Shown piece after piece: positions 20,456 through 41,249 of a stretch of DNA of 64,000 nt. The notes beneath the pieces were generated by a model that worked only from the letters and a program-made list of their open reading frames with translations, was not told the origin of the DNA and searched no databases. Every line of letters starts with the position of its first letter. Positions within the stretch are counted from its first letter, which is position 1. Source of the DNA: Schmidtea polychroa (lineage: Eukaryota); the NCBI GenBank assembly GCA_044892525.1, contig CM097885.1, positions 4,466,001 to 4,530,000 of the forward strand, written 5' to 3'. Both the position numbers and the translations under genes were made by a program.

Positions 20456-22912
20456 TAAATTAAATTATAAAATAAAAATCTTAGTCCATTAAACTGAACG
20501 ATGTTAAGAAAAGGTATTTTTGTTCAATACACGGTAAAAACAAAAACAAAACCGAAACTTGATTTTCTTTAGAAATTGAACCTTTTCTTAACATCGTTCT
20601 GTTTTTCTGGTTTCAACCTTAAATACATGCAGCTCCAAAATTATTCATTCAGTGAATCGTTGTAGTAGATAGTTGTTGGGCTAAATTTTGAAGTAGAGGA
20701 AACTGGATCGAATAGGGAAACGAACCCCGAGAAAATAAATAAAATAAGATAAAAAATAACTTACAGCCAAATCTCAGTAATAAATAGGGAGAAACAATAA
20801 GATACCAATAAAAGAAATAGGAATAAGTAACCAAAATACATAAAACCCCTAAGATGTGGAAATAAGACAAAAGGGAAATGGTTTAAGGCATACAGCAGAT
20901 AAAGTAGAAATAGAATAAACAAAAAAGTAAGAAAAATAAACGAGAAATTAAAGAAATAAAATAAAAATAAAACCATTCTTAAATCTAATTAAAACAAAAA
21001 ATTATATTACAATAAAATAGCATTAAAAAAATAATAAAACTAAGAAAATAATAAAATAATAATAAAAAATAAGATAAGACCAGTAAAATTCACTATATTA
21101 TAATAAAAAACATAAAAATAATAATAAATAACGAAATTACACGCTAACCGTGTCCTGATTGGACGAAAAATAATATATAAGCAACGTGGAAAATTAGAAG
21201 ATCACCACTTTTAATCCACGATTGCAGGTAAAATTTTATAAGTAAAAACCACTTTTAATCCACGATTGCAGACCACTTTAACAAATACTCTACAGCGAAC
21301 TATTCCAGAGAACAGCAAGGACTACGAAACCGAATCTAAACAAAGAATATACAGTAATCAACCGTCAAATTTAATTGAGGACTAATTCCATTTTGAGCTA
21401 TTCAACCTATCCGATCCAGTTTTCGAAACTTGAGGTATGTCTCAGAAGTTGATTATTTATGGTTGCTAGTTTAATATGGTTATTTTGTAAACATAATTAA
21501 AAAGGAAACAATTTCATATAATAAATTTATTCAAATGAAAAGACAGCCTTTCTTCATGGTACCGGCGACTGTACCATCTGGGAACTTCAGGTATGATGTG
21601 GACGATGCCAAAGATATGCCACAGCGGAATGAGCAGCCACGAGGAACTTTCAGAATATGTATCCTAAGGATGTCGCAGAATTAAATGCTCCGAGAATATA
21701 ATAAGAGTTTATGAGATTTTTTCATTAATGTCACGATCAAATGTGTGATTACAAGGTAGGAGAGACATCATACTTGGAGCCCAAATGATATGGTCGCCGG
21801 GTAAATTTTATTTATTCATTTATTGATTATTCGTTTTTGATTTATCTTGCACAAATTTTAAATTTAATTGAGTTGAAATGAGTTGATTGGTCCCTCATGA
21901 CGGTGCAAGAGCAGTGGCAGAAATGTGTGCCGTTCTTGGGTGTGTCGTGAGGAATGAAGAAACTATGTAGTCAAGATCCAGTTCGGAAATGAATTTTCTT
22001 CATCGAGTGCGATCGTAAATAGAGCATCCCATCATTTCTATCCGTCACACCGAAATCTCCAACAGTCGCAAAGATGATTAAATTCCAAAAGGAGAATGAT
22101 TCATGTTGAGATCGACATTTATATCCAGTTCTGATTTTGTGAGAATCCACGTAGAATAGAAAGACCTTTTCATACTTAGCTTGTCCGTCAGCATATTTAG
22201 AAAGAGAACCTGTTCGACCATAATTTGCGAGAAATTCCAAAATTTTCCGTAATACACCACATTTCCGAGATTTTACCTGATTTGTGTCGCCAGGACGTTA
22301 ACTGCTAAATCCATCGTCGATGCACTTTTAGAATCGTTGTCCTTGGATTGCCGGTATCAGTGATAAGCATTTGCTTTCTGACAGAAGAGTAAACATCTCG
22401 TAATAAATTATCAAAATACTCACCATAAGCTTAAAGGAGATAGTCGCCAGCGATATCGAAAATTCGCCGATCAATCTTAGCTAGCTTGGAGTTAGCCGTC
22501 GTAGATAGCCGATAATATTTTGGTAGAGATTGTGTATTGATTTCTGATAGAGGTTGTGAAACGAACGCATTGACAGTGGTTATCCTAAATCAACATCGTA
22601 AAGGAAAACCTGATAATCGAATCAAGCTTATCTAGTAATCTCCTGATTTGCCACCCACTCATGATTTGATTTTGCGCTCCCAGTTGGCTAATGTTGCTGC
22701 TTGTCTAGGAAAACTGATATTTAATCGACATTACCTTGACTTGAGAATGCAACTATATATGTACACACTAGTCAACTTTGCACAAGGCAGTATAAGGATC
22801 GATCTACGATTAGGGTAGAAAATTTTTTGATGACGTATCGATTACATGATAATACGAATTTTCTCTAAAACAGCGAGATGGTATGCAGGAGTGAAGGATT
22901 AGATCTCCCCAA

Positions 22913-23850
22913 AGTAGTGTGGTTATATACCCAACCAAAACAGCCCCCCAACAAAAACATGCCTCCAAATCACTTAAGCTATTAGAAAAACAACCTAAAA
23001 CTTATACTTTTATAGTATTTTAACCCTATATTTTGAAAACAACCACCCTTAATGACTCTAACTGTTTTAATCTTTAAAGCCTCAAACTCAAAAGCTTCAA
23101 ACTAAAAAGAGAATAGAAAAGAAAATGGCATTATGAAAAAGTTAGAGGGCTATTTGATCTTTATCAGATTATTGATTTTAAATTATATAAATTAAAAAAT
23201 AAATGAAAAATAGTAAAACTGCTCTGAGGGGACAGTGGTATTTTTTTTTTCACTGTCCCCTCAACAGTTTTTTTTGATCCGGATCATTTTTTTTATTTAT
23301 CAACCTCTTTCGTTTATCGAATCTCTTCCAATATACAAGCTGGCCAGACTCATACATCAGAATCAATCCGATAATAGCAGCACACCTTATTATTCGCTTC
23401 TCGCTCGAATACGATTTCATCGGCGTTTTAAGTGTGCTGCTCGAAAGTACAAATGAATTCGAAAGCGAATTCGAAAGAGGTCCGAAAACAACTGAGAAAT
23501 AAATGTGCACATTACCGGGATCGATCCGGGGGTGTTCGAAAGACAGGTGGCAATAATTACCGGTTCGCCACCATCACCCGTTTCAATATTTTTTTTTTCA
23601 TATTTATGTTTAAAAAATAATTAATTAATAAAAAAATAAAATAAAATAAAATAAATAAAATAAAATATACAAGTACTTTATAAATAAAAGATACCCACAC
23701 TATTTTCAATATTATTTTCAAATTTTTAATATTATTTTATGTTGAAAAAAAAACTAACCTCAGATGTGATTTGAACCGCTAGCATTTTGAACCACTGTGT
23801 CAGTCTAGCCCACTACGCCATCAAGGTTTGGATTTTTTGTCATTTTTTAA
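22913..23850 (+). repeat. Left terminal inverted repeat of Polinton copy 1
   Basis: Reverse complement of ~37108-38037. Near-identical to about 23760; the innermost ~90 bp are more diverged. Confidence 0.93.
23745..23827 (-). ncRNA. tRNA-like Pol III unit 4 (inner end of left TIR; paralogue of unit 3)
   Basis: Minus strand reads ACCTTGA-TGGCGTAGTGG...GGTTCAAATC...CTGAGGT-TAG-T9; the acceptor stem pairs 6 of 7 (including G-U). Confidence 0.65.
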
Positions 23851-23894
23851 ATTTTTATTATAAAAAATGAATAATATAAATCTTAAAAAATAAA

Positions 23895-26800
23895 ATGAAA
23901 ACAGGGTATCCAATAAAAAATTTTTTTCTAAAAATGAATTGTAATATTTGCAATAAAGTTTTTAAAAATAAAACTGGATTAATTTCTCACTTAAAATCGA
24001 AAGCTCATTTATTAAAAGAAAATAATCTTAATGATACAAATTCAAAACTTTGTCCTAAATGTAAAGGAAGATTTCTACATTCTGGATATAATAAACATTT
24101 TGAAAATTGTATCGGGAAAAATAGAGAAATATTTACATGTTCTCACTGTAACTTTTCAACAAAAGTAAATTTCTATTATTTAGAACATATAAAAGAATGT
24201 AAAAATAAAAAACAAAATTCTGACGATGAGGAATGTCATTCAGAAGGAGAACCTGATCATGTTGAAAGAGAAAAATATAACTGGGATAATTTTAATCATA
24301 TAGATGAATTTCAATTAAAAATTAATGGGCCTGCAACTCCTGGAGAATATATAAATAAAAATAAAAAAAATATTAAAAATTCTTTCACTGAAGCTTTAAA
24401 AAATTATAAACCGACAAGGTATAATGTTATAAAATATAAAATTATAATCAAAGCAAAATACTGGCGAGGAGCAGAAGAAAAGACAACACCCTTAGATGTT
24501 GAAATTGGAATACCTTTTAAATATTTATTTTCAATTAAAGGATTTGATAAAACCATCAAAGAAATAATTAAAGCAGCAGAAGCAAAACAAGAGGAAGTAG
24601 AAAATGAATTAGGAGATTCAAACTTAGTATTCAACTCTTTCCAAACTTTAGTGATTGATTATTGGAGAGGATTACCACCCAATCCTAAATCTTATATTCC
24701 TACACCCTTTAAATCTAAAAATGTTATAAATGTACAGAATAATGATAACAAATGTTTCATCTGGTCAATACTTGCACATTTACATCCTCAAGCAACAAAT
24801 CCCCAAAGAGTTTCAAAATACAAACAATATGAAAATGAATTAATATTTCCCAAAGGATTCAAACACCCAATGAAACTAGAAGACATTCCAGAATTTGAAA
24901 AATTAAATAATCTTAAACTTAATATTTATGAACATGTTATAGGGAAAGAAATTATTCCAATTTATATTTCAGATAGTGGAATCAAGGATAATGGAGCACA
25001 GGACAACGAGATATATCTTTTAATCTTGGAACAAGAAAATAATCAACATTATGTTTTAATAAAAAACTTTCAAGCTTTTATATCTCCAGAGAATCCAACT
25101 AGTGGAGGAGGAACATGTAAAAGATGTCTTCATTATTCAACAACTAAAAACTCTATGATTTAACATACAAGATTTTGTGAAAAAGATGATCCAGCTTTAA
25201 TTAAAATGCCTAATAATCCCAAGATGTATTTTAAAAACTTTTCAAATTTACTACAAACAGTTGGAGTTCTTTATGGTGACTTTGAATCTATAAACCATAA
25301 ACAAGATTTGGTTTATCAATATTTAAAAATAATAGAAAAAAATAAACTCATGGATTCCTGGAACTCCTCAGGAGAGAAGATGAAACCAGAGAGGATGAAA
25401 GCCTTTCTAAGAAAAAGAAATAAACCTAATAGTGTTAAAAAAACTAAACAATTACCATCTGCTTATAAATTATTATTTAAAAGTAATTATCCTGAACTCA
25501 TAGAATCTAGAGAATATTCAATTCTAGGAGGTACCCCTGAAGAAGTCTTGAATCATTTTACTAAAAATATAAATGATCTAGAACATGAAATATTTAAAAT
25601 ATTAAAAACAAAGTATCCTCAAAATATTTCTAATCAACAACAACAAGAATATGAAAATACTTCCAACTGTTGGATGTGTAAACAGAATATTCTTCCTGAT
25701 GAAAAAGTTATAGATCATGATCATTTAAAAAAGGAAAATAATTATCGAGGAGCAGCTCATAAAAATTGCAATCTTAATTGCCATACTCCTAAATTTATAC
25801 CTGTTATATTTCATAATCTTTTTGGATATGACATACATCTATTTATTAAACACCTCGCAGCAAATGCTAAAAACTCTTTCAAAGTTATCGGCTTAACAAA
25901 GGAAAAATATAAATCAATTGAATATGGGAAATTAAAATTTATAGACTCGTTAAACTTTCTCCAAATGTCTTTAGATGCAGTAGCAAAAACAATGAAACCA
26001 GAAAATTTTAAAATCACTCGAGAATTCTTGGAAAAAAATAATATTCCTCTAGAAGAATATCCTACATGTTTAGCAAAAGGAATATATCCTTATGACTATG
26101 TTGACTCGTTTGAAAGATATAATGAAACAAGTCTTCCTAGCCAAGAAGATTTCTATTCACAACTTCAAAAAAATCATATTACAAATCAAGAATATTCTCG
26201 AGCAAATAAAATGTGGGAATTATTCAAGTGTAAAACTTTAGGAGAATATACAAGTATGTATTTATCCTTGGATGTTTATATTCTAGCAGATTGCTTTGAA
26301 GAATTTACAAAATCTTTTGTTCTTAAACCTTATAATTATATAACTGCACCCTCTTTAGCTTGGGATACTATGTTATATACCATTTGGACTTCAAATATAG
26401 AAGATGCTGATAAAATTATAGATCTTTTAACTAACCTCGATATGTTTAACCAAATTAAAACAAACATTAGAGGAGGAGTCTCTTCAGTAATGGGGAATAG
26501 AGAAATAAAAGCTAGAAATGCAATAACTACTAGCCGAAGACTATCTAAACACCCTGATGATCCATATATGAAAATTAACAATGAGGAATTAAAAGAATTA
26601 TTAGAAACAATGAAAAATCCTATATTTATACTTTATATAGATGCAACAGCTTTATATTCAGGAATTATGACTCAATTTTTACCAATGGGTGATTTCACTG
26701 AAATAGAGAACCCAACAGATGACCTTATGAAAGAAATACTTTCAACATCGAAAGATTCTCCAATAGGTTACTTTATAGAATGCGACCTCGACTATCCAGA

Positions 26801-28214
26801 TGATATAAAATCAGGAACAAGATATTTTCCTTTAGCTCCCATAAGAAGAAAGATTGATATCAACGAACTTTCTGAATGGCAAATCTCACAAGATAAACCT
26901 CCAACAATGAAACTTCTTTGTGATCAAACAGATCGAAGGTTTTATCTTTGTCACTATAGACTCCTCCAATTTTATCTTTCACGAGGAATGATATTAAAAA
27001 AAGTTCATAGTGTCATAAGATTTAAACAAGCTCCATTCATGAAAGCTTTTATCGAGGAGAACATTAGGTGCCGAAACATTGCAAAAAGAGAAGGTAATCT
27101 TTTTAAAGATAATAATTATAAAATTTTAAACAATTCAGTCTTTGGGAAAACAATGTAGAATGTTGATAAATATACTCATATTGAACTCCTAACAAATACT
27201 ACCAAAGATATTAAGCGTTATAATCGCATGCTAGGAAAGCCTACATTTAAAAACGCACAAGTATTTTCTGAAAATCTTACTGCAGTAGAATTAAAAAATT
27301 ATGAGAAAACATATAACAAACCAATATTTATAGGGTTTACAATTTTAGAACTTTCAAAATTACAAATGTATGAAACATATTATAACATCTTACAACCTAT
27401 ATACGGAGCAAATATATCAATGCATGCAATGGATACAGATTCAATGTTTTTAACAATAAGAACTCATGATTTACAAAAAGATATGAAAGAAAATCCTATA
27501 CTTTCAAATTTAATAAATTCATCTGGAGAACTATTTTCGTTTAAAGATGAAAAACCTTTTACTCCTATAGAAAATGGAATATTTATTCGTGCTAAACAAT
27601 ATTCATACGAAACATTGAGAAACCCTGAATTTATAACTAGATCATTTATATTTAAAACTCCAGAAACAGAAGAAACCATTACACATAGATATCCTATATT
27701 TCCTAAAGAAGAAAAACCTGTAAAGGATAACAGATGTAAAGGAATACAGAGAGTGGTTGCAAAGAATCTTTCTCATCAAGATTATATAGATACATTGAAT
27801 CCAAATCATAAAGATAAAATTGATGAAATACATCAACTTAAAAGTGAAAACCATGATATTCACTTGATAGAATCTCAAAAAGTATCATTATCAAATTATG
27901 ATGATAAGAGATTCATACTAAGTGATTTAAAGACAACTCTACCTATTGGAAATAATTTAATCCCTATAATAAAAAATCTAGAAAAGTTGAATAAGTTATA
28001 TGATACAAAGATTACTGATCTTGATATTTATAATGTTGAAATTATTTATCCCGAGAGAGAAATCGAGAAACCTTTATATTCTCAAGTTTTTAATTCTATA
28101 TGTTTAGAACTTAAATATTTTAATACTGATCCTGAATATATAAAAGGTCTAAGTGATAAAGAATTTAAAGATCATAAATTAATGATTCATAGGTTGGCTT
28201 TCAACCATAACTGA
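23895..28214 (+). pseudogene. polB: Protein-primed family B DNA polymerase (pPolB), one reading frame with two in-frame stops (TAA 25161-25163, TAG 27156-27158)
   Basis: ORFs 23895, 25206 and 27228 share one frame. N-terminal Zn fingers; ExoI YGDFES; DHDH..YRGAAH..CN; ExoII FHNLFGYD; KGIYPYDY; motif A YIDATALYSG; motif B KILNNSVFGK; motif C MDTDS. Confidence 0.95.
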
Positions 28215-28308
28215 AACCAACGATATTTAATTTTTTAATAATAAAATGTCGACAATTAATTTAAGCAACTATAGCAACCTGATCTACTTTTTTAAAAATA
28301 CACCCATT

Positions 28309-28920
28309 TTATAAGTAAGAATTCTTTAACCATTTTTCTCGAGATGTTTTTTTATTACTTATAACATTAGCCACCATGCCCTCCCTTTTTAATCTTATAA
28401 CCTCATTCTTTATATCTTGTATTATTTGATTTGATTTCATTATTTCTTCGTCTGTCAGGATTCCATCTTCCAAAGCTTTTAATTGAAATAAAAATAATTT
28501 AGAGATTCCTAATTCTATTGATAAACAAACTTCTCTATATAAACTTTTCTTTTTAGAAGTATAAGATAATGAAACTATTTCAGTTAAGAAACCATCAGCC
28601 ACAGAAATACTTCCAAGTATTACAGGTGCAAGAGTAACAACTGGTAAAGTTATGGGTAAAATAACTGTTAATATTGCAGATGCAAATCCTAAAGAATAAC
28701 CTATAACTTTTAAAACTGTATTCCTTTTATTCCATCTATTTTTAATTTTTTTATAATGCTTTAATAAATCTTGTAAATGTAAGGTTTCTGATTTAAATTC
28801 TTTTACTCTCATAATTTCAAGTTCTGTGGGAGCCGAGGCCTTGGAACCTTTGTGACCTTCGGAATAATATCCTGATGATCTCAATTCTGGGTAAATTTTT
28901 TCTTCTCTTACTTCTTCCAT
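28309..28920 (-). CDS. Polinton accessory membrane-associated protein (coiled coil plus hydrophobic hairpin), 203 aa
   Basis: Intact ORF with hydrophobic segment VIGYSLGFASAILTVILPITLPVVTLAPVILG; conserved in copy 2 (54820-55398). Confidence 0.8.
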   Translation of the reverse strand: MEEVREEKIYPELRSSGYYSEGHKGSKASAPTELEIMRVKEFKSETLHLQDLLKHYKKIKNRWNKRNTVLKVIGYSLGFASAILTVILPITLPVVTLAPVILGSISVADGFLTEIVSLSYTSKKKSLYREVCLSIELGISKLFLFQLKALEDGILTDEEIMKSNQIIQDIKNEVIRLKREGMVANVISNKKTSREKWLKNSYL

Positions 28921-28928
28921 TTTAATAA

Positions 28929-29939
28929 TTAAAAAAATAAGACTTTATTCTTCTGAGCACCATCTGGCACCAATACTCGGATATCAAAAGAAACTCTTGT
29001 TGAGAGGATATCTTTATACAATTCTCTCAATGCTTTACGAACTTCATCAACATCAACCTTTTTTTCATAAAATATTAAATCTATATATTGTACAAGTGAA
29101 CTAGAAAAATGAATATTCTTACTTTTAACTTTATGTAGTCCATGTGAATGAGTATTAACATACCAATCTCCGTGTGGTAAATCATAACTAGTCATTATAA
29201 CATCACCCTTTTCAAGCTTACTATTATAATCACATTTCACAAACCATTTCATTCTTTCATTATCATCATCAAACAAAAAGAAATAAGGATCAATAATTTT
29301 TACAACCATAAAAACACCCCATTCTTTACTGTTTGTTGTTATTAAACTTGGTTCTATAAAATGTTTATATGTATGGGGTAATAATGTTTTATTCTGTTCT
29401 AATTCAGCAGCTCTTTTTCTAATACTATGTGTGGTGTTAATGTGTGTTCCATGAGACTCTAAATTTGAAATTCTTTTATTAAATGATGTAATCATCTCAT
29501 TTATTATTTTATATATTGGATTAAATTTAGTATTCATAATTTGTTTATCTTTAGAATTTAATATAGCAGTATTTAACTTTACAACTTGTTCAGTTAACAG
29601 ACTTTGTAACTTGTCAAATTTATCATTAAATCGTTGTTCGATATTATTAAGCTTTGATTCCATTGAATCAATTTTTGTTGTTAATGAACTTTCAATTCTT
29701 GTTGTTGTTAAATCAGTATATTTTTTAACACCATTTACATATTTCTTATTAACTGCATCAGCTTCATCAGTTGGAAAAGATAATTCTTTTATCTTGTGTC
29801 CATTTAAAATTAAATCACCCTTCATTGAATCACCTCTTTCATTAATATATTTATTTTCTGTTAAAGTTAATATTTCTTCTGTATTAAACCCTGTTTTTAT
29901 TGTTCCACCACCTCTATTACATGGAATATAAGAACTCAT
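28929..29939 (-). CDS. Fibre-like/coiled-coil virion protein, 336 aa
   Basis: GDSMKGDLILNGHKI..PTDEADAVNKKYV resembles tail-fibre-type motifs; followed by a coiled coil and a globular C-terminus; adjacent to penton; conserved in copy 2. Confidence 0.65.
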   Translation of the reverse strand: MSSYIPCNRGGGTIKTGFNTEEILTLTENKYINERGDSMKGDLILNGHKIKELSFPTDEADAVNKKYVNGVKKYTDLTTTRIESSLTTKIDSMESKLNNIEQRFNDKFDKLQSLLTEQVVKLNTAILNSKDKQIMNTKFNPIYKIINEMITSFNKRISNLESHGTHINTTHSIRKRAAELEQNKTLLPHTYKHFIEPSLITTNSKEWGVFMVVKIIDPYFFLFDDDNERMKWFVKCDYNSKLEKGDVIMTSYDLPHGDWYVNTHSHGLHKVKSKNIHFSSSLVQYIDLIFYEKKVDVDEVRKALRELYKDILSTRVSFDIRVLVPDGAQKNKVLFF

Positions 29940-29979
29940 TTATTAATAATTTAAAATGGACGGAGTCCCCTGAGAGGAA

Positions 29980-30705
29980 CTAAACCTGTTTCAAATGTAA
30001 ATACATTGAAATCTCTTCTCCATTAAAATCAATCAATTCTCCTTCTTGATTAAGAATTTTAAAATTAATATCCATTATATATTTTCTACATAAAGGTAAA
30101 TAATTTGGAGGATTCATTCTTTCAACTATTTTATATCCCATAGGAACTGTGTTTGAGGGAAAGGAATATAAAACATTTGTTTGTTTACCATTATTATAAG
30201 AACCTGTTATACAATCGCAATGAATATTTATTGTGTTTGTATTTATTATTTTTATAATATGTTCTGATGTTATTATTCTATCTTCTTTTATTGTTATATC
30301 CATAGGTTTAAATCCTAAAACTGTGTGAAAGAAACAATTATCTAAAAAACTAATTTTTATATTCTTCAAAGTCATTACACATTTTGAAGTTGGTATATCC
30401 ATTTTAATTTTAATACCTTCATTTGTTTTTTTAGAAAGTATATCATTTAAATCTTTTATCTCATATGCCCCAGGTTCTATTGTTATAATTTCTGGTTTAT
30501 GCCCATCACGAGTTTGAATAGTAAATTTATTATTATCTTTAGTTATATTAAAAATCGTATTATAAGCACAAAACCATAATAGCCCCAATTCATAATTTAA
30601 ATTTTGATCTAATTTAATTGAATCTTGAAAGTTTATAGTAAAGTCTGATTCTTTTGAATTTATAGATAAAGTTCTTGAATATTTATCTGACATTATGTTT
30701 ACCAT
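29980..30705 (-). CDS. Minor capsid protein (penton, single jelly roll)
   Basis: INIHCDCITGSYNNG..VLYSF...GYKIVE..NPPNYLP...DFNGE pattern typical of Polinton minor capsid proteins. Confidence 0.85.
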   Translation of the reverse strand: MVNIMSDKYSRTLSINSKESDFTINFQDSIKLDQNLNYELGLLWFCAYNTIFNITKDNNKFTIQTRDGHKPEIITIEPGAYEIKDLNDILSKKTNEGIKIKMDIPTSKCVMTLKNIKISFLDNCFFHTVLGFKPMDITIKEDRIITSEHIIKIINTNTINIHCDCITGSYNNGKQTNVLYSFPSNTVPMGYKIVERMNPPNYLPLCRKYIMDINFKILNQEGELIDFNGEEISMYLHLKQV

Positions 30706-30789
30706 TTTTTTTTAAATTATCTTCCGGAGGGTTGTGAAGCTCCATTTCTTTAGTAGTAAATTCATATAGTAAAAATCCTTATAGTAAAA

Positions 30790-31256
30790 ATCCTTATAGT
30801 AGAGATTCTAGATCATTATAAATTTCTTGAATTATAGATTCAAAATCCTGCGTATGCCCCTTTCCCTCTCCCTTATTCAATCTATACAAAACATAAACTT
30901 AAAATACCACATATTTTAGTATTCAAAGGTTGAACTTGTAAAGAGTTAAAAGTATAACCATTTGGGGAATCAATCGGAGAACCCCTCAAGAGATAATCTT
31001 CAACTTCTTTAGTAGGTTTAATCCCAAAAGAATCAAAGTAGATAGATTTCTTATATATACAAACCCAATGAGATCCTTTTTCATTTGAATTTTGATAATT
31101 GATTATTATATTCAGGGGACTCTCCAGACTTGATAATTCATCATTCATTAATATTTTAATTTTTAAATTTAAATAATTTGCATAATCTTTCAAATCAAAA
31201 TTTGTTTTTGCATTTATTCCAAATGTTTTTAAAAAATCTAATATTGAAGGAGTCAT
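30790..31256 (-). pseudogene. Adenain-like cysteine protease with a frameshift near the C-terminus
   Basis: GSHWVC...YFDSFG...QVQ....ICG catalytic residues. A 2-nt deletion relative to copy 2 near 30892 gives an early TAG; the downstream frame continues DFESIIQEIYND. Confidence 0.88.
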
Positions 31257-31278
31257 TTTGTATTTTAAAACTTCGTAT

Positions 31279-32172
31279 TTATAACTTCGTATACTTATTA
31301 AATTTATCTTTTGAAATTATTCCTTGTTTTAACAAATCTTTAGAAATCTTTAAAATATCAGAATCTAAATTATTATGTCCTGCTTTCCTTGCAGCTAATA
31401 GTTTTCTTAATTCAATAAAAAGATTGATGGGATTTGGTTTACCACCTTCACTAATTAATCCCTCTCCCTCTGTAACAACATAACCCTTTTCATTTTTATT
31501 TAAATAATTCTTTAAATCTTGAATATATTTTGCTTTAGAACTAGCTCTTATTAATCTTATTAAATTTAAATATTTTTTAATTTCTTCAACATCATCTGAA
31601 GAATATCCACAAAGTAATCTATAAAAATCATCTGTAAATTCAAAGTCTAAATATTCATTATTATAAACATTTTGTGAATGAATACGTGATTTATTTTCTG
31701 AATTTGAATATAAAGTAAAGTTTTGTTTATTAATTGTTATTATTTGATATCCTTCAGTATTAGTATTAAATGTGGGTCTAATTGAAGGAGGTAAATCATC
31801 TCTAATTTTAGGATCAACTTTAAGAGGTTTTGTTTTTAAAAACATTTCTTCTTCTTCCACATTAGAAATTCTTCTGCGTTTTCTTTGATTTCTTTCAGAA
31901 TGACTTTCAGGATGGTTTTCACTGGATTCTTTTTCTTTATCCTGCCACTCTAGTTCTTTTATTTTTTGTTTTTTATCTTCTAACTCTTTAAATTTTGCTT
32001 GCTCATTGAAATCTTCCAACTCTTTTATAGCTTTAATTGTTGGCCCCTGTTGTTGTGTTATTACCTCATTTAATATTATAGATTCAGCATGTTGAGTTGT
32101 ATCTTTTTTATTATATTTATCTTGTTCTGATTGTAATTTTTTTAAAAGTGCTAATCTTTCTTCATATACCAT
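31279..32172 (-). CDS. Polinton conserved putative core protein (PZ-like), 297 aa
   Basis: C-terminal NPINLFIELRKLLAARKAGHNN..DILKISKDLLKQGII matches the conserved Polinton motif; NLS-like RKRRR. Confidence 0.75.
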   Translation of the reverse strand: MVYEERLALLKKLQSEQDKYNKKDTTQHAESIILNEVITQQQGPTIKAIKELEDFNEQAKFKELEDKKQKIKELEWQDKEKESSENHPESHSERNQRKRRRISNVEEEEMFLKTKPLKVDPKIRDDLPPSIRPTFNTNTEGYQIITINKQNFTLYSNSENKSRIHSQNVYNNEYLDFEFTDDFYRLLCGYSSDDVEEIKKYLNLIRLIRASSKAKYIQDLKNYLNKNEKGYVVTEGEGLISEGGKPNPINLFIELRKLLAARKAGHNNLDSDILKISKDLLKQGIISKDKFNKYTKL

Positions 32173-32194
32173 TTTAATGGTATCAAAAATGGTA

Positions 32195-32773
32195 TCATAG
32201 TTCGAAGGGCTTCAAGTATAATCCTTTACCATTTTTAGTTTTACAAAGGCATCCATTCATTAAAGATTTACATATTTTTTTTAAATCTTCTTTATCTTTT
32301 GAAGATAAAGATTCAGATGTAGAAATTTGATTTTTTAAAAAATCATTTAAACCTCTACCTTTATAAGGATCAAGATAGAGACCTTTGCCCTGAGACTTTT
32401 GCCGACTCCCCTCATATGGATTAAGATAGAGACCCTTTCCAACGGACACTCCCCCTTTAGCTTGCCCTACCTTCTTCATTGAATCGATTTCAGTTTGTAG
32501 TTTTTCTTTTTCTAGGTCTGTCTTTTGAGATTCTTTAGCTTTTTGAACTGTAGTTGCAATTCCTCCAGCTATTCCAGCAGCACCTGATAAACCAGCAATG
32601 ATTGCAGGTATTAAAGCAGCTAATGGAAGAATGCCACCTTCTTTAGCTTCGTGGAGCTTCGCTCTAACTTGTTCTTTTACATGTTTTCCAATAAAATATT
32701 TTTTACCATCAATTACTACTGATTTATTTTTATTTGAATTTATTAATTCTTGCAAAGATTCTTCAGTGGTCAT
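32195..32773 (-). CDS. Adenovirus pX-like core/membrane-active protein with GxGLYLxPY repeats, 192 aa
   Basis: EGGILPLAALIPAIIAGLSGAAGIA resembles adenovirus pX GGILPLLIPLIAAAIGA; three GKGLYLxP motifs. Confidence 0.75.
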   Translation of the reverse strand: MTTEESLQELINSNKNKSVVIDGKKYFIGKHVKEQVRAKLHEAKEGGILPLAALIPAIIAGLSGAAGIAGGIATTVQKAKESQKTDLEKEKLQTEIDSMKKVGQAKGGVSVGKGLYLNPYEGSRQKSQGKGLYLDPYKGRGLNDFLKNQISTSESLSSKDKEDLKKICKSLMNGCLCKTKNGKGLYLKPFEL

Positions 32774-32789
32774 TTTATAATAAACAAAA

Positions 32790-33594
32790 ATGGATGTACG
32801 AAGTCCAATAATTTGGAAACCAATTTTAAATAGACATAAGAGTAAATTTAATAATAAAGTATTTACTGATAATTTTAGATTATTAATTGTTGGTTCTTCT
32901 GGATGTGGAAAGAATGTACTTGTTTTGAGAATGTTACTTGAAGATGATTTTTTAGATTATAATAATTTAATCTTTTATTCTACAACCATAAATCAACCAG
33001 AATTACAACTTTTGAAATGTGGATTTGAAAATAAATTAACTAAAAAAGCAATAATTGATATTTTTAAAAATCAACATAGGTGTCCTGAAGAAGTTTTTCA
33101 ACCTTGTGATATGGTTGATTGGTATAAGGAAAAGATTTTAGAATCAGATATTAGTAATAAAAATGATTATATTTGTGAAGAAGGGCAGGAGGCAATTCAA
33201 GTTTTATTCTCTAATAAACCTGAAGATGTTTTACATTGTGATTTACTTCCTAAAGATAAAAAGAATCTAGTTATATTTGATGATGTTGTTAATATGAAAA
33301 ATCAAGAGATTCAAGAGTTACTTTACACGAGGTCGACATAATAATTGTAATGTTATTTATATATCTCAAACATATTATGCTTTAGATAAAAATTCAATAA
33401 GAAATAATTCCAATTGTTTTATATTTTTTAAATTAGATCGCCGTGATAAGAATATGATTTATAATGATTTATTTTCAAATGTTGAACCTGATAAGAATAT
33501 GTTTGATATGTTTGTTGATAATCATTGGAAAGAAAAATATAATTATATTTATTTGGAAAGAGAAGAAGCTGAAATATGGAAAAGTTTGTTTTAG
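32790..33594 (+). pseudogene. A32/FtsK-like DNA packaging ATPase, frameshifted near 33316
   Basis: Walker A GSSGCGKN and Walker B LVIFDD. The shifted frame continues YFTRGRHNNCNVIYISQTYY...IRNN to TAG at 33592-33594. Confidence 0.9.
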
Positions 33595-33605
33595 GGCTTG
33601 TCGAC

Positions 33606-35018
33606 TTAAAAATCTGTTTTCTGTAGTTCATTATTATAAAATCTACCTAATATTTTTTCATTATTTAAATCAAAGATGCTATATGTTATTGGAGTTGTAT
33701 AATGTATTTTATTTATAATAAAAATTTCATTTGTCCATTTTGCTGTGAATCCTTTTTCAAATTTATTTTTATATTTAAATATTCTTACTCGGTCACCAAT
33801 TTTAAACTTTGGTTTTTCAATAACATCATTTTCAATATTTACCACTTTAATGGTTTCAGGCTTCATGGAAGCATTTAAAGGTGTTAATTTTATAGAACTA
33901 TGTACATCATTATTATATTCATTTACAATCTTTTGTAACAATTCATTGTTCCATTTTTGTTTTCCAATAGCAGTAAAATATTTCCACATTTTATTTTTTA
34001 ATGTTCTATTTAATCTTTCAACTACGACTGCTTTTCCTTCGTTTTCTGTTGAATAGAATTTAATATCATTTTCATTTAAAAACTTTGTAAAAACTTTGTT
34101 ATAAAATTCTGTTCCTTTATCACACCATAAATATTTTGGGATTCTTTGATTTTCTTCAAATATATTTTCAAATGCTTCTGTAATGGAATATCCTGTTTTA
34201 TTTTCTAAACACCTTGCAAAGGCAAATCTTGTATATAAATCTATTACAGTTAAAATTATTTTATATTTTTCAGGAACTGATGATTTGGTTGGCATAAAGA
34301 CTAAATCTGCAGACCATGTTTGATCTTTTTCATGTACTTGAACTTTTAAATATTTTTTATTTTTTCTAAATTCATGGTGTAATTCGTTGGCATATTTTAT
34401 TTCTGATTCTGTTGGGGTTTGTAAACTAGTCTTGGCTGTACTCTCGAGGGATCTTTCAATCTCTGCTTGTTCGATAATCTTTTTATAAGCAACATCTTTT
34501 GCTTTCCTAGGAAGTCTTGCACCCATGGTGATCGGACTGTGTCCAAAGCCTATGAAAATCTTACCTTTCATTGCTAATTTAACTAGAGCTCTTTGAATCT
34601 TTTCTTGGGTTGATGGATTTTGGATACTATTTAAATCATGTATTAAATTCACATCTGCAACATGTCTATCTCTAAGATTTGTTGAATTGTATGCAATGTC
34701 ATGTTTTAAAGCTGCTTGATCAATTCTATTTATTGGTTCTTCTCCTTGTTTGGGATTATTATTTTCATCTAATCTAATATCTAGACGTGTTCCTGGTCCA
34801 GTATAGTTGTGTTTAAATAAATGTCTTTCACCTGGATATTTTTCTGTAGTAAAAGGTTTTAATATTGAAGATGTTGTTTTTGAAGATTGCAAATCGCCTC
34901 CAGCTCGTGGAATTAGATCACCTCCTGTATGTTTTTTAGTTTTTAAATGACTTGCTTTATGATGTCTTGTAACTTGACAATTACAACTTTCACATCTCCA
35001 ATATTTATTTAGAGACAT
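33606..35018 (-). CDS. int: Retroviral-like DDE integrase fused to an N-terminal Zn finger and a parvovirus-type phospholipase A2 domain, 470 aa
   Basis: WSADL, LWCDKGTEF and VVERLNRTLK (D,D,E); C-terminal KFKIGDRVRI..WTNEIF; PLA2 motifs YTGPG and DQAALKHDIAY; CESC..H...H at the N-terminus. Confidence 0.95.
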   Translation of the reverse strand: MSLNKYWRCESCNCQVTRHHKASHLKTKKHTGGDLIPRAGGDLQSSKTTSSILKPFTTEKYPGERHLFKHNYTGPGTRLDIRLDENNNPKQGEEPINRIDQAALKHDIAYNSTNLRDRHVADVNLIHDLNSIQNPSTQEKIQRALVKLAMKGKIFIGFGHSPITMGARLPRKAKDVAYKKIIEQAEIERSLESTAKTSLQTPTESEIKYANELHHEFRKNKKYLKVQVHEKDQTWSADLVFMPTKSSVPEKYKIILTVIDLYTRFAFARCLENKTGYSITEAFENIFEENQRIPKYLWCDKGTEFYNKVFTKFLNENDIKFYSTENEGKAVVVERLNRTLKNKMWKYFTAIGKQKWNNELLQKIVNEYNNDVHSSIKLTPLNASMKPETIKVVNIENDVIEKPKFKIGDRVRIFKYKNKFEKGFTAKWTNEIFIINKIHYTTPITYSIFDLNNEKILGRFYNNELQKTDF

Positions 35019-35056
35019 TTTAAAATGTTAAAATATCAGGGATTATATCAAGAATC

Positions 35057-36339
35057 TCACCTAACATTTTCGATTATTGAAATCTTTCCACCATCTAATT
35101 TCATTTCTATTTTCTTTTCTTCTAATATTAATGTATATACTTTAGCTTTAAAATTAGAATCCTTTGTTACATGAAGTGTAACATCAACATTATTTATGGC
35201 TAGGCGATCATCTTGGTCTGAAACATTTATACAAAATATAGAATATAAATTTTTGAAATCTTCTAAACTTAATTGCGGTTCAACTTTGAAATCATAACAT
35301 GTTTCAATATAATTTAGATATGGGAATATGTTTTCATTATTTTCAATATTAAATTCCATTCTATTTATTGGATAATAAGAACTATTTAATTGAATTTGGA
35401 TTGTTTTTAAATTATCAACTCCAATCTTTTGAATAAACAAGTTGTTATTTTTTGGAAAGATGAATCTACTTCTTTGAATCCAATCAAGATATATCTTGGT
35501 CGGTATGCTAAATTTGCTACCTTTATAGAATATGTTGAACCCTCTGTCATACTAAATTCACTACAGATTCTATTTAAATAATTTACATTTATAGACTTGT
35601 TGGAATTTAATCTTTCAAGGAGTTTAATCTCAGAATGTGGGTTTAATGTCCATTCAGGTATATGTAATTCAAGTGTTGATAATTTTAATTTAGCTTTTGT
35701 ATCTACAGCTCCATAGAACAATCTTTTATCACCTTCTACTCTATTACAGATGAATTCTATAAAAACATTATGAAGTATACGATTATAGTTTTGAAGGAAT
35801 CCAAACAAGTGTTTTAATTCAAAATAACCTTCAAATTTTTTAGATTTATAAAGTTCAGCTCTTTTATGGTAACCATGGTTTACATCTAAACCATCTTTAT
35901 CTAAATCCCCTTTATTAACATCAGGAATCCAACCTGTTAATTCACCATATTCGTTTTTATAATCACAACCAGTCAAAATAAAATTTAACATTGTAGAATA
36001 TACTCCCGGATGCAAAACAGTTTCAATTTCTGATGATCCTAGTTTTAATCTCATGTTGGAGAATAAATTTGGAAAGAAATTATTTTCTAGGGTTATATCT
36101 TTGTTTGCTTCAATTTCTAATTCGATTTTATAATATAATTTGGCATTACAAATATCTATAGGGTTTGATGTTTGAAGAGATTGAAAAACTATATCACCCC
36201 TACGATTTAAGTTTGCAATAGATCCTGAAGTTGGGGAGATTTTAAGTACATCATTTTTCTTGATTTCATGAGTAAATTCTTTATTATAATCAAGATTTAA
36301 TTTATTTTTTTCTTGAATTTTAAGATTTATATTATTCAT
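35057..36339 (-). pseudogene. Major capsid protein (double jelly roll), split by a 1-nt loss in an A-run near 35450
   Basis: ORFs 35407-36339 and 35057-35440 join to ~427 aa. Motifs NNFFPNLFS, LFGFLQNYNRIL, RPRYILIGF, YYP and YSIFCINVS are typical of Polinton MCP. Confidence 0.85.
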
Positions 36340-36395
36340 TTTTATATATTAAAATTTACACACACAAAATAGGATTAATTAAATATATTTTGTAA

Positions 36396-36477
36396 GCCAT
36401 TATAGCGGAGTGGGAATAGGCTTCAATTTTATCACCGGGAGTACCGGGTTCAATTTTCGATTTTGGTCAATTTTTTT
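36396..36477 (+). ncRNA. tRNA-like Pol III unit 1 (degenerate)
   Basis: A box TAGCGGAGTGG at 36403, B box GGTTCAATT at 36447, T7 at 36471. Aligns without gaps to unit 2 over 72 nt. Internal T4 runs suggest decay. Confidence 0.5.
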
Positions 36478-36638
36478 CGATATTTTTTTTCAACGGAATC
36501 TGATTCAGCGTACTGATTTTAGTATATATTTAAATTTTCAGATGGATCTGAGTGGTAGTTGTCGAGAAAATGAATAATTAATTATCAATTTCATCAATAA
36601 ATAGTCACACATTAACAACTTATTTTATATTGAGTATA

Positions 36639-36719
36639 GCTCTAATAGCTTAGTGGTAATAGCACTCGACTGCATTGCCAATACCAATGGGTTCAAATCC
36701 CATTTCGGTCATTTTTTTT
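36639..36719 (+). ncRNA. tRNA-like Pol III unit 2 (tRNA-Cys-like 5' half, non-pairing anticodon arm)
   Basis: A box TAGCTTAGTGG at 36646, GCA at canonical positions 34-36, perfect T-stem ATGGG/CCCAT around TTCAAAT, T8 terminator at 36712. Confidence 0.7.
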
Positions 36720-36881
36720 CAAATTTTTTTTTAACGAAATATTGATCAGCATACTCGATTTAGTACTTGTACAAATTTTTAATGAGATTGGTCAACGGCA
36801 ACTCTTGGAAATTTAAGATCAAAAACGTTTTAACTTAAGCTACCAAAAATTAATATATCCAATAAAAAAATATTTATAAAA

Positions 36882-37151
36882 ATGGATGAGTTAAAAGAAA
36901 GAATGAGAAATGAATTGAATGAAGTTAAACATAAGAGAATGAAAAGAAGAGAAGAAGAACCATTAGAATACATCAAAGAGTTGATGGTAGATAATGAAAA
37001 GTATCGACATTTTTATATGAAGGCTGTAGATGTTGCTGATATAAGATTGAAGAAAATGAAACAATTACAGGAAAGAGTTAAAGAACTTGAATCGATTATT
37101 TATAGTCTAAAAAATGACAAAAATCCAATCCTAGATAGCGCAGTGGGCTAG
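36882..37151 (+). CDS. Small coiled-coil protein of unknown function, 89 aa
   Basis: Intact charged heptad-rich ORF with AAAATG start context; its stop overlaps tRNA-like unit 3. Confidence 0.55.
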   Translation: MDELKERMRNELNEVKHKRMKRREEEPLEYIKELMVDNEKYRHFYMKAVDVADIRLKKMKQLQERVKELESIIYSLKNDKNPILDSAVG

Positions 37152-38037
37152 ACCGGCACCGTGGTTCAAATGGATAGCGGTTCAAATCCTAACTGTGGTT
37201 AGTTTTTTTTTCAACATAAAATAATATTAAAAATTTGAAAATAATAGTGTGGGTATCTTATATTTATAAAGTACTTGTATATTTTATTTTATTTATTTTA
37301 TTTTATTTTATTTTTTTATTAATTAATTATTTTTTAAACATAAATATGAAAAAAAAATATTGAAACGGGTGATGGTGGCGAACCGGTAATTATCGCCACC
37401 TGTCTTTCGAACACCCCCGGATCGATCCCGGTAATGTGCACATTTATTTCTCAGTTGTTTTCGGACCTCTTTCGGATTCGCTTTCGAATTCATTTGTACT
37501 TTCGAGCAGCACGCTTAAAACGCCGTTGAAATCGACTTCGTGAGCGAGAAGCGAATAATAAGGTGTGCTGCTATTATCGGATTGATTCTGATGTATGAGT
37601 CTGGCCAGCTTGTATATTGGAAGAGATTCGATAAACGAAAGAGGTTGAAATAAAAAAAATGATCCGGATCAAAAAAACTGTTGAGGGGACAGTGAAAAAA
37701 AAAAAAAATACCACTGTCCCCTCAGAGCAGTTTTACTATTTTTCATTTATTTTTTAATTTATATAATTTAAAATCAATAATCTGATAAAGATCAAATAGC
37801 CCTCTAACTTTTTCATAATGCCATTTTCTTTTCTATTCTCTTTTTAGTTTGAAGCTTTTGAGTTTGAGGCTTTAAAGATTAAAACAGTTAGAGTCATTAA
37901 GGGTGGTTGTTTTCAAAATATAGGGTTAAAATACTATAAAAGTATAAGTTTTAGGTTGTTTTTTCTAATAGCTTAAGTGATTTGGAGGCATGTTTTTGTT
38001 GGGGGGCTGTTTTGGTTGGGTATATAACCACACTACT
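37108..38037 (-). repeat. Right terminal inverted repeat of Polinton copy 1
   Basis: Reverse complement of 22913-~23850. Confidence 0.93.
37129..37211 (+). ncRNA. tRNA-like Pol III unit 3 (inner end of right TIR)
   Basis: A box TAGCGCAGTGG at 37136, B box GGTTCAAATCC at 37179 with a second GGTTCAAA upstream, T9 at 37203. Confidence 0.65.
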
Positions 38038-38724
38038 CCCCAACTCAACCTAGTGTGTTTGCTAATTCCTTCTAATAGTACAGACAAGTAACCGATTTAA
38101 TAGTCTATACACAGCAACAGATACAACGATGAATATCGGCACTCATAACAAAATTACTTATAACGCATGACTACAGGCAGGCGTCTCCATGACAACGATT
38201 GCGATGCATTATTTAAAATGATCAGAATTTAATTTATAGCCTAACTCTAACCGATATATTTCGTTTATTTTTATAACTTAAATCGAGTCTATAACCTAAG
38301 TAGAGGTCAGTCACCGCGAATTATTTTCCCATAACACTATGCACGCATAAATCGCCAAAATACAGTAGAGAAACTTAAATTTTTAATAACAAGAAACATA
38401 ATGGAAGGAATAGGGTTGATCGTAATAAATGAATAAACATGTTTTGGTACGGAGATTGTCCAGTCGAAAGTAAATCGAAGGGTTGAGTTTTATATCGAGT
38501 GAATTACTTTCGAGAATTCCCCCTTTTCTTTTCTTAAGTTATAGGGATTGGGTGAATTAATTTAAATGTTTGCGATTAAATGACTGTGAACTTTGGTAGA
38601 CGGTAAAGATTGCGGGCTATTGTTAAATGGAATGATTGATGGAATTACAAAGCCCCCGCCCCAAAGTGTATATATCACACAAACGAATGTTACGAATAAG
38701 CATAAAGACTGATTAAACCTGCAG

Positions 38725-39479
38725 ATGTCAACACCGTCCAACACTATCAAGGAACTTCGCCCGTGTTTTTCTTGTGCAGACAAGAACGCGGATATCGCCC
38801 AACTCCACCTTCATATCGGGGCTCTCAAAAAGCGTATAGATCTATACGAAGGAACGTGGTTCTCCCCGCCACAGATGAAGGAAGAGCGGAGTAAGATTCT
38901 CAGATTGGAGCACTGTCGAGACAGCCTCCTGGGGGAGAGCTGCTGTCAAAGGCTCACGATCAAGACCCAGTCCGAAGCCCTCCACAAGGTTTATACGGAG
39001 GCGGAACTGGCAAAACGGGTACGAGAATTTCCCGTCCTGGATGGAACAAATGTATTTCCCCTTCACCACCAGTCATCCACATCTTCCACCTCAAGCTGCC
39101 AGGGGCACGGATCACATCTCCATTTGAATCAGTTCTGTCGGGTTATCGGCCAATGGCAGGTGGTCCTTCTGACCCTATTCTGGCCCCAGTTCTCGTGGCA
39201 CCCGTCGTCACATCTGTAGTAGAAAACAATCTGCCACCTCGCAAACGGAAGCGGTCAACCAGAGCAGAAAAGAATCAGAAACGTAGAGATGCAATGGCAG
39301 CACTCGAAGCGTCATTATCTGCGGCGCAATCAACAACCGAAGAAATATCGTCCACCCACTCCATCCCCTCGAAAGAAGTTTTTCGAATAGTTCCGGCCGA
39401 AGAGATAAAATTTATATCGGATCGTCGGCTACCGGTTGACATCGATGAGATGATTGCCGAAGGAGAAGGCTTCGTGTAA
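38725..39479 (+). pseudogene. Unknown GC-rich gene in two overlapping frames (CxxC, coiled coil, NLS)
   Basis: ORFs 38725-39219 and 39153-39479; PPRKRKR; GC content well above the flanks; GC-box and TATA-like motif at ~38653-38676. Confidence 0.4.
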
Positions 39480-41249
39480 AGTGACTTACGCTCGGTCTCG
39501 ATTCTTTCTTTTGAATTGCAAATCGATTTTTTTTCTTGAAAAACTGACAGCCTTGTATATTTTAATTGATTTGAACTCTGTTGGTTTAGTAATTGTCGTG
39601 AATAATTTTGTTTTTGGCTTTAATATATTTTTGTCTGATTTCATTATGGTAAATTTTCAATATGCATGGTTGTGCAATCACGGTGAATGAAAGGATGATG
39701 TGGAACGAAGGCAATTAGGTGAGAGGTCGTCCCCTTGGACCAGGGTCGTACCGAGTTATACGTATGGATGCCGGTAAGACCTTCTAAGGCACCTTGGAAC
39801 CCGAATCGCGAGTGGGTTAACAGTAGTCCTAAGGTAGGGGCTCACCTGTTAACCAACTCCAACCCGTGTGAGCATGACCAACGAGGAACATCGCCGCGGG
39901 CTCACATGAGGGAATATCAATGAAGTCATTTGGAGTATGTTGGGGAAAGGTCTGATTCGAATGGACATGATCATATATCTGGTGATAAATTTTCCTTTTC
40001 TCCCCCCATACACCAACATAGTTGTGTGGACTCCAGCCCAACAGGAATCCTCGACTCTCACAAAGTTTTTTGGGCATCTGATACCTCCCCCCTACTTTTT
40101 AAAAAATATTTTGGACACCCCTTAATTTTTTTTTAAAAATTTTATTTTGTTTAAATCGTTGATTATATCATCAATTTTCATTTTTGTAAGCATTTTTTAT
40201 GTCAATATACTTGAAATTAAATTCTCTATTAAATGAGACTGCCGTAATCAAAATTGTTATATTTCATTTTTAGTGCACTATTTTTGAATTTACACATTTT
40301 TTAAACACCTTGAGATATTTTCACTTAAACAATATATAAATAAAATTTAAATCTCTACAAAATGACATCATTATTTATTTCAAATTCACAATCATAACAC
40401 CTTAAACAATGCCTTTTTAGCCAACTTTTACATACACACATTTTTAAATTTTAGAAAATACTTAAGAATACCCATTATGATATTAAAAAATTATATTAAA
40501 AGATATATTAAAAACTAAGCGTTTATTAATATTTATTAATTTTCGAACACTATCTAATCTCCAAATCGGTGATATGACATCTTTCTCATCCATTTTATAT
40601 CCCTGTATTGAAATACTTACAAACCAGCTTTCCCTATTATTTTCAATTTCTTCAAAGGCATCATGAAAACGGGAATTTCGATTGTTGATGAATATATTTC
40701 CATTGCAACATAGATTCTTATAGATTTTCCACAACACTTTATTTACTGCAGCAACATCTTTTGTTATATGTGTTATGAAACTTGAATATTGCAACTTGAT
40801 CAATTTGACTGCATTTCAGAATTTATATGGAATTTCATCTACCAAGAAATACATCTTATGGTTATGATACATTTGTACTGGTTTCACATCATTCTTGACA
40901 TGCTGAGTCTCAGTTATTTTCTTAATTGGGTTTGTTACTTTCAATAAATTAGAAACTATTTTCTCACCAAAAAATGTATAAATTTAAATCTTGAATATTT
41001 GTTTTATGGATGGATACACTCTTGAAGTTTATCTCGTAATTCCTTCTGAGCTTCATGATAAGTTGGATGATATCCCTGTTGCTGCTGAAAAATGAAACCA
41101 GGAAATAGATCAAAGCTAAAATATTGTTATTAAAACATCCAAAAACGAATTATGTTATTAATTGGAGGTTATTGAAATTATACTTAAAAATATTTTGAAA
41201 AATATATTGACACTAATTCAGAATTAAGATCGAAAAGTAAAAATACTCT

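Follow-up and report, generated by a model that had tools for sequence, protein, structure and literature searches.

A Polinton carrying four Pol III-type units

The DNA analysed here is a 64-kb stretch of the Schmidtea polychroa genome (assembly GCA_044892525.1, contig CM097885.1, positions 4,466,001 to 4,530,000), referred to below as the window; all positions are counted from its first base. It contains a complete Polinton/Maverick of 15.1 kb (22913-38037), delimited by its inverted repeats, its Pfam families and its flanks. Mavericks, or Polintons, are transposon relatives of adenoviruses and virophages. Within this element we noted four short units, U1 to U4, with the full anatomy of RNA polymerase III (Pol III) type-2 genes, and their motifs are not a product of chance. 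U1 and U2 lie on the plus strand between the capsid gene and the right terminal inverted repeat (TIR), and U3 and U4 lie in the right and left TIRs, respectively.

U1 (36396-36490, plus strand) has an A box at 36403-36413, a GGTTCAA box at 36447-36453 and a body that extends to 36470, followed by a T7 run at 36471-36477 and a T8 run at 36483-36490. U2 (36639-36732, plus strand) has an A box at 36646-36656, a B box at 36690-36700 and a body to 36711, with T8 at 36712-36719 and T9 at 36724-36732. In U3 (37129-37211, plus strand), the A box at 37136-37146 is followed by two GGTTCAA boxes (37163-37169 and 37179-37185), and the body, which ends at 37202, runs straight into T9 (37203-37211). U4 (23745-23827) is on the minus strand, with an A box at 23810-23820, two GGTTCAA boxes, a body that reaches 23754 and T9 at 23745-23753. 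An initial annotation of the window had reported four such units, each with an A box at position 8, a B box near position 52 and a T7-T9 run; all of them were found again by position and by motif scan.

The A box begins at unit position 8 in all four units, and GGTTCAA begins at unit position 52 in U1 and U2 and at positions 35 and 51 in U3. The stricter B box, GGTTCRANNCC, was matched solely by U2 and by the second box of U3. By sequence, the units thus combine an A box near +8, a B box near +52 and an oligo-T run directly downstream, as type-2 Pol III genes do. The A-box pattern TRGCNNAGTGG was found five times in the 64-kb window, compared with 0.20 occurrences expected, and none of 100 shuffled windows reached five. 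Four of the five matches belong to the units (36403, 36646, 37136 and, on the minus strand, 23820). A T7-T9 run stands directly behind each of the four units, starting 0-1 nt past its end; the chance that a run of at least seven T starts in a given 15-nt stretch of the window is 0.0115.

The placement of the units is regular. U3 and U4, one per TIR, point outward and carry two to three tandem B boxes each; the GGTTCAA boxes of U3 lie within a 16-bp tandem unit that is repeated two or three times among genomic copies. The first base of U4 is 39 nt from an ATG at 23867 and 67 nt from the ATG of the DNA polymerase gene at 23895, in divergent orientation, and in the block that holds U1 and U2 a unit again lies 56 nt away from the capsid start.

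Some further features were seen near the units and in the TIRs. A TATAAAAA-like run abuts the ATG of the capsid gene (36340-36349), of a small open reading frame, ORF89 (36873-36881), and of a short frame at the left end (23858-23866); these runs are too near their ATGs to be the usual TATA box of that start codon. Twelve bases from the start of U2, comprising the end of the acceptor strand and the first letters of the A box, recur at 37964-37975 and 22975-22986, about 70 bp from each terminus, which may be due to chance. At 37682-37724, and as a mirror image in the left TIR, there is a hairpin with a perfect 13-bp stem and an A-rich loop, which gave only weak matches to microRNA families, far under the cut-offs. 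The Rfam search of the right TIR gave no signal recognition particle (SRP) or tRNA match. Among the sequencing runs recorded as RNA, none was found to contain the locus. Assembled contigs of a sequencing run (X1, RNA by guess only) cover 36573-37163; such contigs are unable to reveal a small RNA, a strand or a level and may stem from DNA carry-over, and we draw no inference on expression from them. Six contig ends of a second run (X2, likewise RNA by guess only) run on into poly-A past 37659, close behind an AATAAA, which could reflect a polyadenylated transcript that runs outward through the TIR or an artefact.

Organization of the element

The assignment to the Polintons rests on a protein-primed DNA polymerase (pPolB), an rve integrase, a double-jelly-roll capsid protein, a packaging ATPase, long TIRs and a 6-bp target duplication, all of which are present. 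The corresponding Pfam matches were DNA_pol_B_2, rve, DJR-like_dom and Pox_A32; no protease was identified by Pfam in the element. The target duplication, CCCCAA, occurs on both flanks (22907-22912 and 38038-38043), and the termini of the element read AG...CT. The TIRs are about 1 kb long, 22913-23837 being paired with 37119-38037 in arms of 78 to 265 nt that are 89-100% alike. From inverted-repeat matches and alignments, the right TIR was delimited to 37104-38037. The left TIR (22913-23901) holds U4 and also repeats the start region of the capsid gene (23848-23901).

The pPolB gene (23895-28214, plus strand) is read as three open frames, with intervals of 42 and 69 bases between them, and begins with a C2H2 zinc finger. 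An A32-like ATPase is encoded at 32790-33341 and the integrase at 33606-35018 on the minus strand. In the integrase frame, a phospholipase-A2-like domain (Pfam PF08398, E value of 4e-9) precedes the rve core, which is an unusual pairing; PF08398 is familiar from parvovirus capsid proteins. The capsid gene (35057-36339, minus strand, ATG at 36339) is transcribed away from U1 and is split here into two open frames of 310 and 100 amino acids; in many other copies it encodes about 431-433 amino acids. ORF89 (36882-37151, plus strand) has its final codons and stop within U3 and matched no protein family. The left end lacks it, as do some copies, one of which (L033) is without 36834-37083. A search of IMG/VR gave relatives of neither the capsid nor the polymerase protein. 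The genome assembly, 781 Mb in size, consists of 1012 contigs. The window has a G+C content of about 27%; the 2 kb directly to the right of the element (38001-40000) reach 43%, compared with about 27% elsewhere.

tRNA likeness and ancestry of the units

The units had been described as tRNA shaped. This description suits U2, which matched the Rfam tRNA family (RF00005) with 32.4 bits, compared with a gathering score of 29, and which has the anticodon GCA. It does not suit U1, U3 and U4, which gave no Rfam tRNA match even at E values of up to 10 in small searches and are tRNA-promoter shaped. ARAGORN called no tRNA in the window. The T stem of U2 is fully paired, the acceptor stem has five of seven pairs and the anticodon stem two of five. 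No cloverleaf with a paired anticodon stem was obtained for the units, and the minimum-energy folds are not cloverleaves. Compared with shuffled sequences, the folds of U1 to U4 had z-scores of 0.14, -2.45, -0.09 and 0.28, and only that of U2 was weakly better than the shuffles. Besides tRNA for U2, no Rfam small-RNA family was matched, and the complementarity of the unit RNAs to the rest of the element did not exceed 12 nt.

The host genome contains tRNA-Cys(GCA) genes in tandem arrays that repeat every 281 bp; two 3-kb loci hold 11 genes each (L043, G000:C1:269256424-269259472; L044, C948:7923-10971). Positions 7-36 of U2, from the A box to the anticodon, are identical to host tRNA-Cys(GCA) at 26 of 30 positions. 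The 3' half of U2 is unlike that of the host gene, and its T stem is re-paired with other letters. The tRNA-Cys-like 5' half, the GCA and the perfect T stem that had been ascribed to U2 are therefore confirmed, and the comparison indicates that U2 is a degenerate tRNA-Cys(GCA)-derived unit. Capture of the block from a host tRNA-Cys tandem array was considered and rejected: the likeness is confined to the 30-nt tRNA part, and the array spacers are unlike the U1-U2 block. The host tRNA-Cys genes have T3 and T4 runs, shorter than the T7-T9 runs of the units. A pattern search of the genome for U2 copies with a base other than T after the anticodon gave no match.

U1 and U2 form a tandem duplication of a 243-bp unit, with 3' flanks that are identical at 64 of 94 positions. 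All four units end alike, in GGTYA, then a T run and then CAAC-like letters, and because of this common ending U3 and U4 may be old relatives of U1 and U2. A genome search with a D-stem-closing pattern, aimed at a source tRNA for U3, gave no match.

Copy number and distribution in the genome

Genome copies were counted with 34- and 35-nt patterns at up to three mismatches, and the counts therefore refer to near-identical copies. A 34-mer from U2 matched 3251 times, a 34-mer from the capsid gene 2086 times and a 35-mer shared by U3 and U4 2192 times; the reversed patterns used as controls gave no match. With an 851-base query that spans the units, the best 40 scored copies, of 2497 first-look candidates, were 98-100% identical, and the aligned copies overall were 93-100% identical. 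This dominant Maverick lineage makes up several percent of the animal's genome.

The units might have been copies of a host short interspersed nuclear element (SINE), or present in this copy alone. Neither is so, given the 3251 U2 matches and the inspection of 12 U2 sites for which no exact capsid partner was listed: all 12 still lay in Polinton DNA, which was diverged (93-97%), truncated or rearranged. Genome-wide, the left edge of the U1-U2 block was never found next to any other base. Among near-identical copies, these 12 sites, the lack of free-standing block edges and the absence of a SINE body or tail rule out a tRNA-derived SINE. The sequence matches indicate that the dominant Maverick lineage of this genome has inherited the units as part of the element, and that they are not copies of a host SINE. 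As the searches cover near-identical copies, a distant free-living relative of the units may exist.

Layout variants within the family

U1 and U2 lie in an optional block of 489 bp (36357-36845) between two copies of AAAATT (36351-36356 and 36846-36851). In one copy, L048, whose capsid gene is about 86-87% identical, position 36356 is joined directly to 36846. Because of this junction, the U1-U2 block is taken to be a 489-bp insertion 17 nt upstream of the capsid ATG.

Right ends were classified from the exact capsid matches in the first 25.6 Mb of contig 1, of which 55 were listed; only zero-mismatch sites are in this list, and a partner that seems absent may be a mismatch. U2 was present at 34 sites (708-727 bp). 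No exact U2 was found at five sites with U3 at 464-465 bp, the basic layout that the left end also has, at five with U3 at 722-756 bp (ORF89 only), at one with U3 at 917 bp and at one with U3 at 1211 bp. At the remaining nine sites neither partner was listed. The U1-U2 block was thus present in 34 of 46 classifiable right ends. At most right ends, the gap between U3 and the capsid gene measures 0.3-0.8 kb and is filled by ORF89 and U1-U2. In two copies with the basic layout (L054 and L055), the U3-type unit starts 37 nt from the capsid start, comparable to the 39 nt between U4 and the ATG at 23867. These layouts indicate that U3 and U4 belong to the TIR and that U1-U2 is an optional, added pair. 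L054 (G000:C1:14883300-14884150) and L055 (C1:16275150-16276000) contain the capsid-start region and the U3-type unit twice in tandem, and U3-type sites 237 bp apart also occur among the U3/U4 pattern matches.

Conservation of boxes and bodies

The copies were compared in an alignment of 43 rows (39 distinct), one of which is the window's own. The number of differences per cell was 0.003 in U1, 0.023 in U2, 0.012-0.015 in the spacers, 0.004 in ORF89, 0.066 in U3, 0.063 in the TIR beyond U3 and 0.044 in the capsid start region. The figure for U2 comes nearly entirely from a single 9-bp deletion of the 5' acceptor strand, found in 10 of the 42 rows that cover U2 (41 other genomic copies and the window's own).

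Two contrasts of greater age are more informative. U3 and U4 differ at none of 23 box positions and at 13 of 53 other positions (P = 0.007 by Fisher's test), and the old paralogues U1 and U2 are identical at all 16 box positions and at 31 of 58 other body positions (53%; P = 0.0003), although both tests are post hoc and the numbers are small. In these comparisons, the box positions are better preserved than the others. The 45 nt behind the unit are identical between U3 and U4, and U1 and U2 both keep their terminators despite the drift of their bodies. Where the A box changes between the two main U3/U4 haplotypes, the changes sit on degenerate positions of the consensus.

The integrity of the motifs was counted with the exclusion of the window's own copy (L005), the host arrays L043 and L044 and an unrelated locus, L053. 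Among 40 copies of U1, the A box and the B box were intact in all 40 and a run of at least six T in 38. U2 (43 copies) kept the A box in 40, the B box in 43 and the T run in 40. The U3-type units (48 copies, 34 distinct) kept the A box in 47, the B box in 48 and the T run in 44; of the four T-run misses, two are extraction cut-offs, and the other two keep T4-T5. The pattern suggests that the Pol III promoter motifs are maintained while the bodies drift, with selection apparently acting on the boxes.

Comparison with known systems

Viral genes with internal A and B boxes offer the closest parallels. Adenovirus, a relative of the Polintons, has a virus-associated (VA) RNA that is a Pol III gene of this kind. 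The VA RNAs are about 160 nt long and form a long imperfect duplex, whereas the RNAs predicted from the Polinton units are about 75-85 nt long and fold no better than shuffled sequences. The Rfam VA families gave no match at E values of up to 10 over 20000-45000, the region that holds all four units. The proposed likeness to VA RNA did not withstand these comparisons of size and fold.

In the tRNA-miRNA-encoded RNAs (TMERs) of a herpesvirus, pre-miRNA hairpins separate the tRNA-like part from the terminator; in the Polinton units, by contrast, the T run follows 0-1 nt after the unit, there are no intervening hairpins, and three of the four units have no tRNA score. This virus, murine gammaherpesvirus 68, has tRNA-like Pol III genes (PMC8223928, PMC4337559). 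The TMERs are several units with internal A and B boxes that lie clustered near a genome end and do not decode. The likeness is that of a DNA virus-type genome with clustered, tRNA-like A/B-box units not used in decoding.

Some relatives of the Polintons carry tRNA genes. A total of 558 tRNAs is reported over a set of about 8300 genomes of polinton-like viruses and virophages, read as codon compensation (PMC12220804), and tRNAs are flagged in a figure legend for MELD viruses (PMC8502044). Those are called as true tRNAs, unlike the present units, in which the anticodon stem has two of five pairs in U2, ARAGORN finds nothing, the carrier is an animal Maverick and two units lie in TIRs. With tRNA-derived SINEs, the units share a tRNA-derived head, A and B boxes and a high copy number; unlike SINEs, they occur, as near-identical copies, inside the Polinton only, and the T run ends the unit at once, without a SINE body or tail.

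Heterochromatin is reported to be kept from spreading by clusters of B boxes and by tRNA genes that border a domain on either side (PMC2040200, PMC3395662). U3 and U4, with two to three B boxes each, flank the gene block of the element symmetrically and may resemble such tRNA-gene or extra-TFIIIC barriers; the cases described there are host loci and not transposon TIRs, and a barrier role in the Polinton is putative.

The statement that such units had not been described for Polintons agrees with our search, in which no description from animal Mavericks was found in the open literature. The word tRNA is absent from two Maverick papers, supplements apart (PMC8097293, 10.1101/2022.07.12.499685). 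A separate Pol III-gene fragment on a mobile element was seen at L053 (G000:C1:133000-136200), where positions 1457-1586 gave a partial match to metazoan SRP (7SL) RNA of 30.4 bits, under the cut-off of 70; this repeat has no BLAST likeness to the Polinton.

Possible roles of the units

Our preferred, still tentative reading, to which we give a probability of about 45%, is that the units are retained Pol III/TFIIIC modules that act mainly in cis, beside the promoters of the element. TFIIIC would bind the B boxes in the nucleus and would recruit TFIIIB and Pol III, with the production of short tRNA-like RNAs unable to decode. The working part would most likely be the DNA-bound Pol III/TFIIIC complex, because selection seems to hold the boxes and not the RNA fold. 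Such a complex could hold the ends of the element and the promoters of the neighbouring genes in an open state, or protect them against the spread of silent chromatin, and the unit RNA would then be a by-product or serve a second function. A role in cis is favored because the motifs rather than the fold are kept and because the units adjoin the first start codons and point outward. TFIIIC sites at the ends were the other suggestion of the initial annotation, and with two to three B boxes, one unit per TIR by the first start codon and conservation confined to the boxes, this part of it seems to fit better than the VA idea.

Several observations weigh against retained cis-acting modules. The family is young, and the sameness of U1 and U2 (0.2-0.3% of cells differ among copies) and of the whole stretch from U1 to ORF89 (at most 1.5% difference, compared with 4-6% in the flanks) may reflect recent spread and not constraint. 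The box comparisons were framed after the sequences had been seen. Moreover, the boxes are universal tRNA letters, and should U1 and U2 stem from different tRNAs, the boxes they share would reflect inheritance and not maintenance. Acceptor-like pairs are not preserved across the U3 forms (6/7, 3/7 and 4/7 pairs, counted by eye). Elements that lack the U1-U2 block have also reached several copies, with 11 of the 46 right ends that could be classified. In five sister copies whose capsid genes are 86-89% identical (L045, L047 and L049-L051), no A or B box, strict or loose, was found on either strand in the 1.7-1.9 kb upstream of the capsid gene. These five lose all likeness to the window's element at 36321-36358 and have other ends; they are among eight divergent copies that were chosen by odd match length from 126 scored capsid matches and are not a random sample. 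Because of the box-less sister lineages and the copies without U1-U2, the modules are not needed for transposition.

Much of this would follow if the units were neutral relics, captured tRNA-derived sequence that rides along and seems conserved because the family is young. The 93-100% identity of the copies, the optional U1-U2 block, the sister lineages without boxes, the fact that U2 alone still scores as a tRNA and the lack of any fold that stands out, U2 weakly excepted, are all in keeping with relics. We nonetheless consider this explanation rather unlikely, since U1 and U2 have fallen to 53% identity outside the boxes whereas all 16 box positions are shared and both terminators persist, the two TIR forms show 13 differences among 53 non-box positions but none among the 23 box positions, the U3-type copies keep the A box in 47 of 48 and the B box in 48 of 48 over 34 distinct sequences, and the T7-T9 terminators exceed the T3 and T4 of host tRNA-Cys. 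A Pol II explanation would account for conservation confined to short cores in another manner: the GGTTCAAAT cores would bind a Pol II factor that drives the polymerase and capsid genes, and the tRNA likeness would be ancestry only. In the basic layout, U3 and U4 begin 37-39 nt away from the ATG that comes first at their end; this position, and the 16-bp B-box unit repeated two to three times, would suit promoter or enhancer repeats. Such repeats would leave unexplained, however, the A box at +8, the fixed spacing between A and B boxes and the T9 directly after the unit in every form, and at most right ends U3 stands 0.3-0.8 kb from the capsid gene, with ORF89 and U1-U2 in between; we regard Pol II repeats as very improbable.

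The units might instead act in trans, as TMER- or VA-like viral small RNAs directed against host defence or RNA-processing factors, which had been the leading suggestion of the initial annotation. Their complete Pol III anatomy with strong terminators would serve that purpose, as would the nearly invariant bodies of U1 and U2 among the copies. U2 also keeps its T arm paired and five of seven acceptor pairs, and the acceptor/T-arm half of a tRNA is the part recognised by processing enzymes. Set against this are the lack of a stable fold, of complementarity to the rest of the element beyond 12 nt and of any Rfam small-RNA family match except tRNA for U2. The bodies of U3 and U4 vary freely, with loss of pairing, and 10 of 42 aligned copies have lost 9 bp of the 5' acceptor strand of U2. 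A trans-acting RNA is accordingly an improbable explanation in our view.

Implications for Maverick biology

To our knowledge, almost nothing is known of the non-coding parts of Mavericks or of how these elements escape host silencing. The candidate Pol III-type modules, at fixed places in both TIRs, give a concrete hypothesis on Maverick non-coding DNA, and copies that naturally carry or lack the U1-U2 block provide built-in controls for it. On the sequence comparisons made here, the units are a real, integral and partly optional component of the dominant Maverick lineage, with a putative function. It is conceivable, if doubtful, that this lineage, the most successful of the animal's Mavericks with thousands of near-identical copies, owes its success in part to Pol III/TFIIIC modules in both TIRs and beside the capsid gene, by way of anti-silencing or of decoy RNAs. 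If so, transposon-borne tRNA-gene promoters would serve as an anti-silencing device, one that is undescribed for Polintons in the open literature searched. If the modules are inert, they would still show the capture, duplication and wear of a tRNA gene inside a virus-like element.

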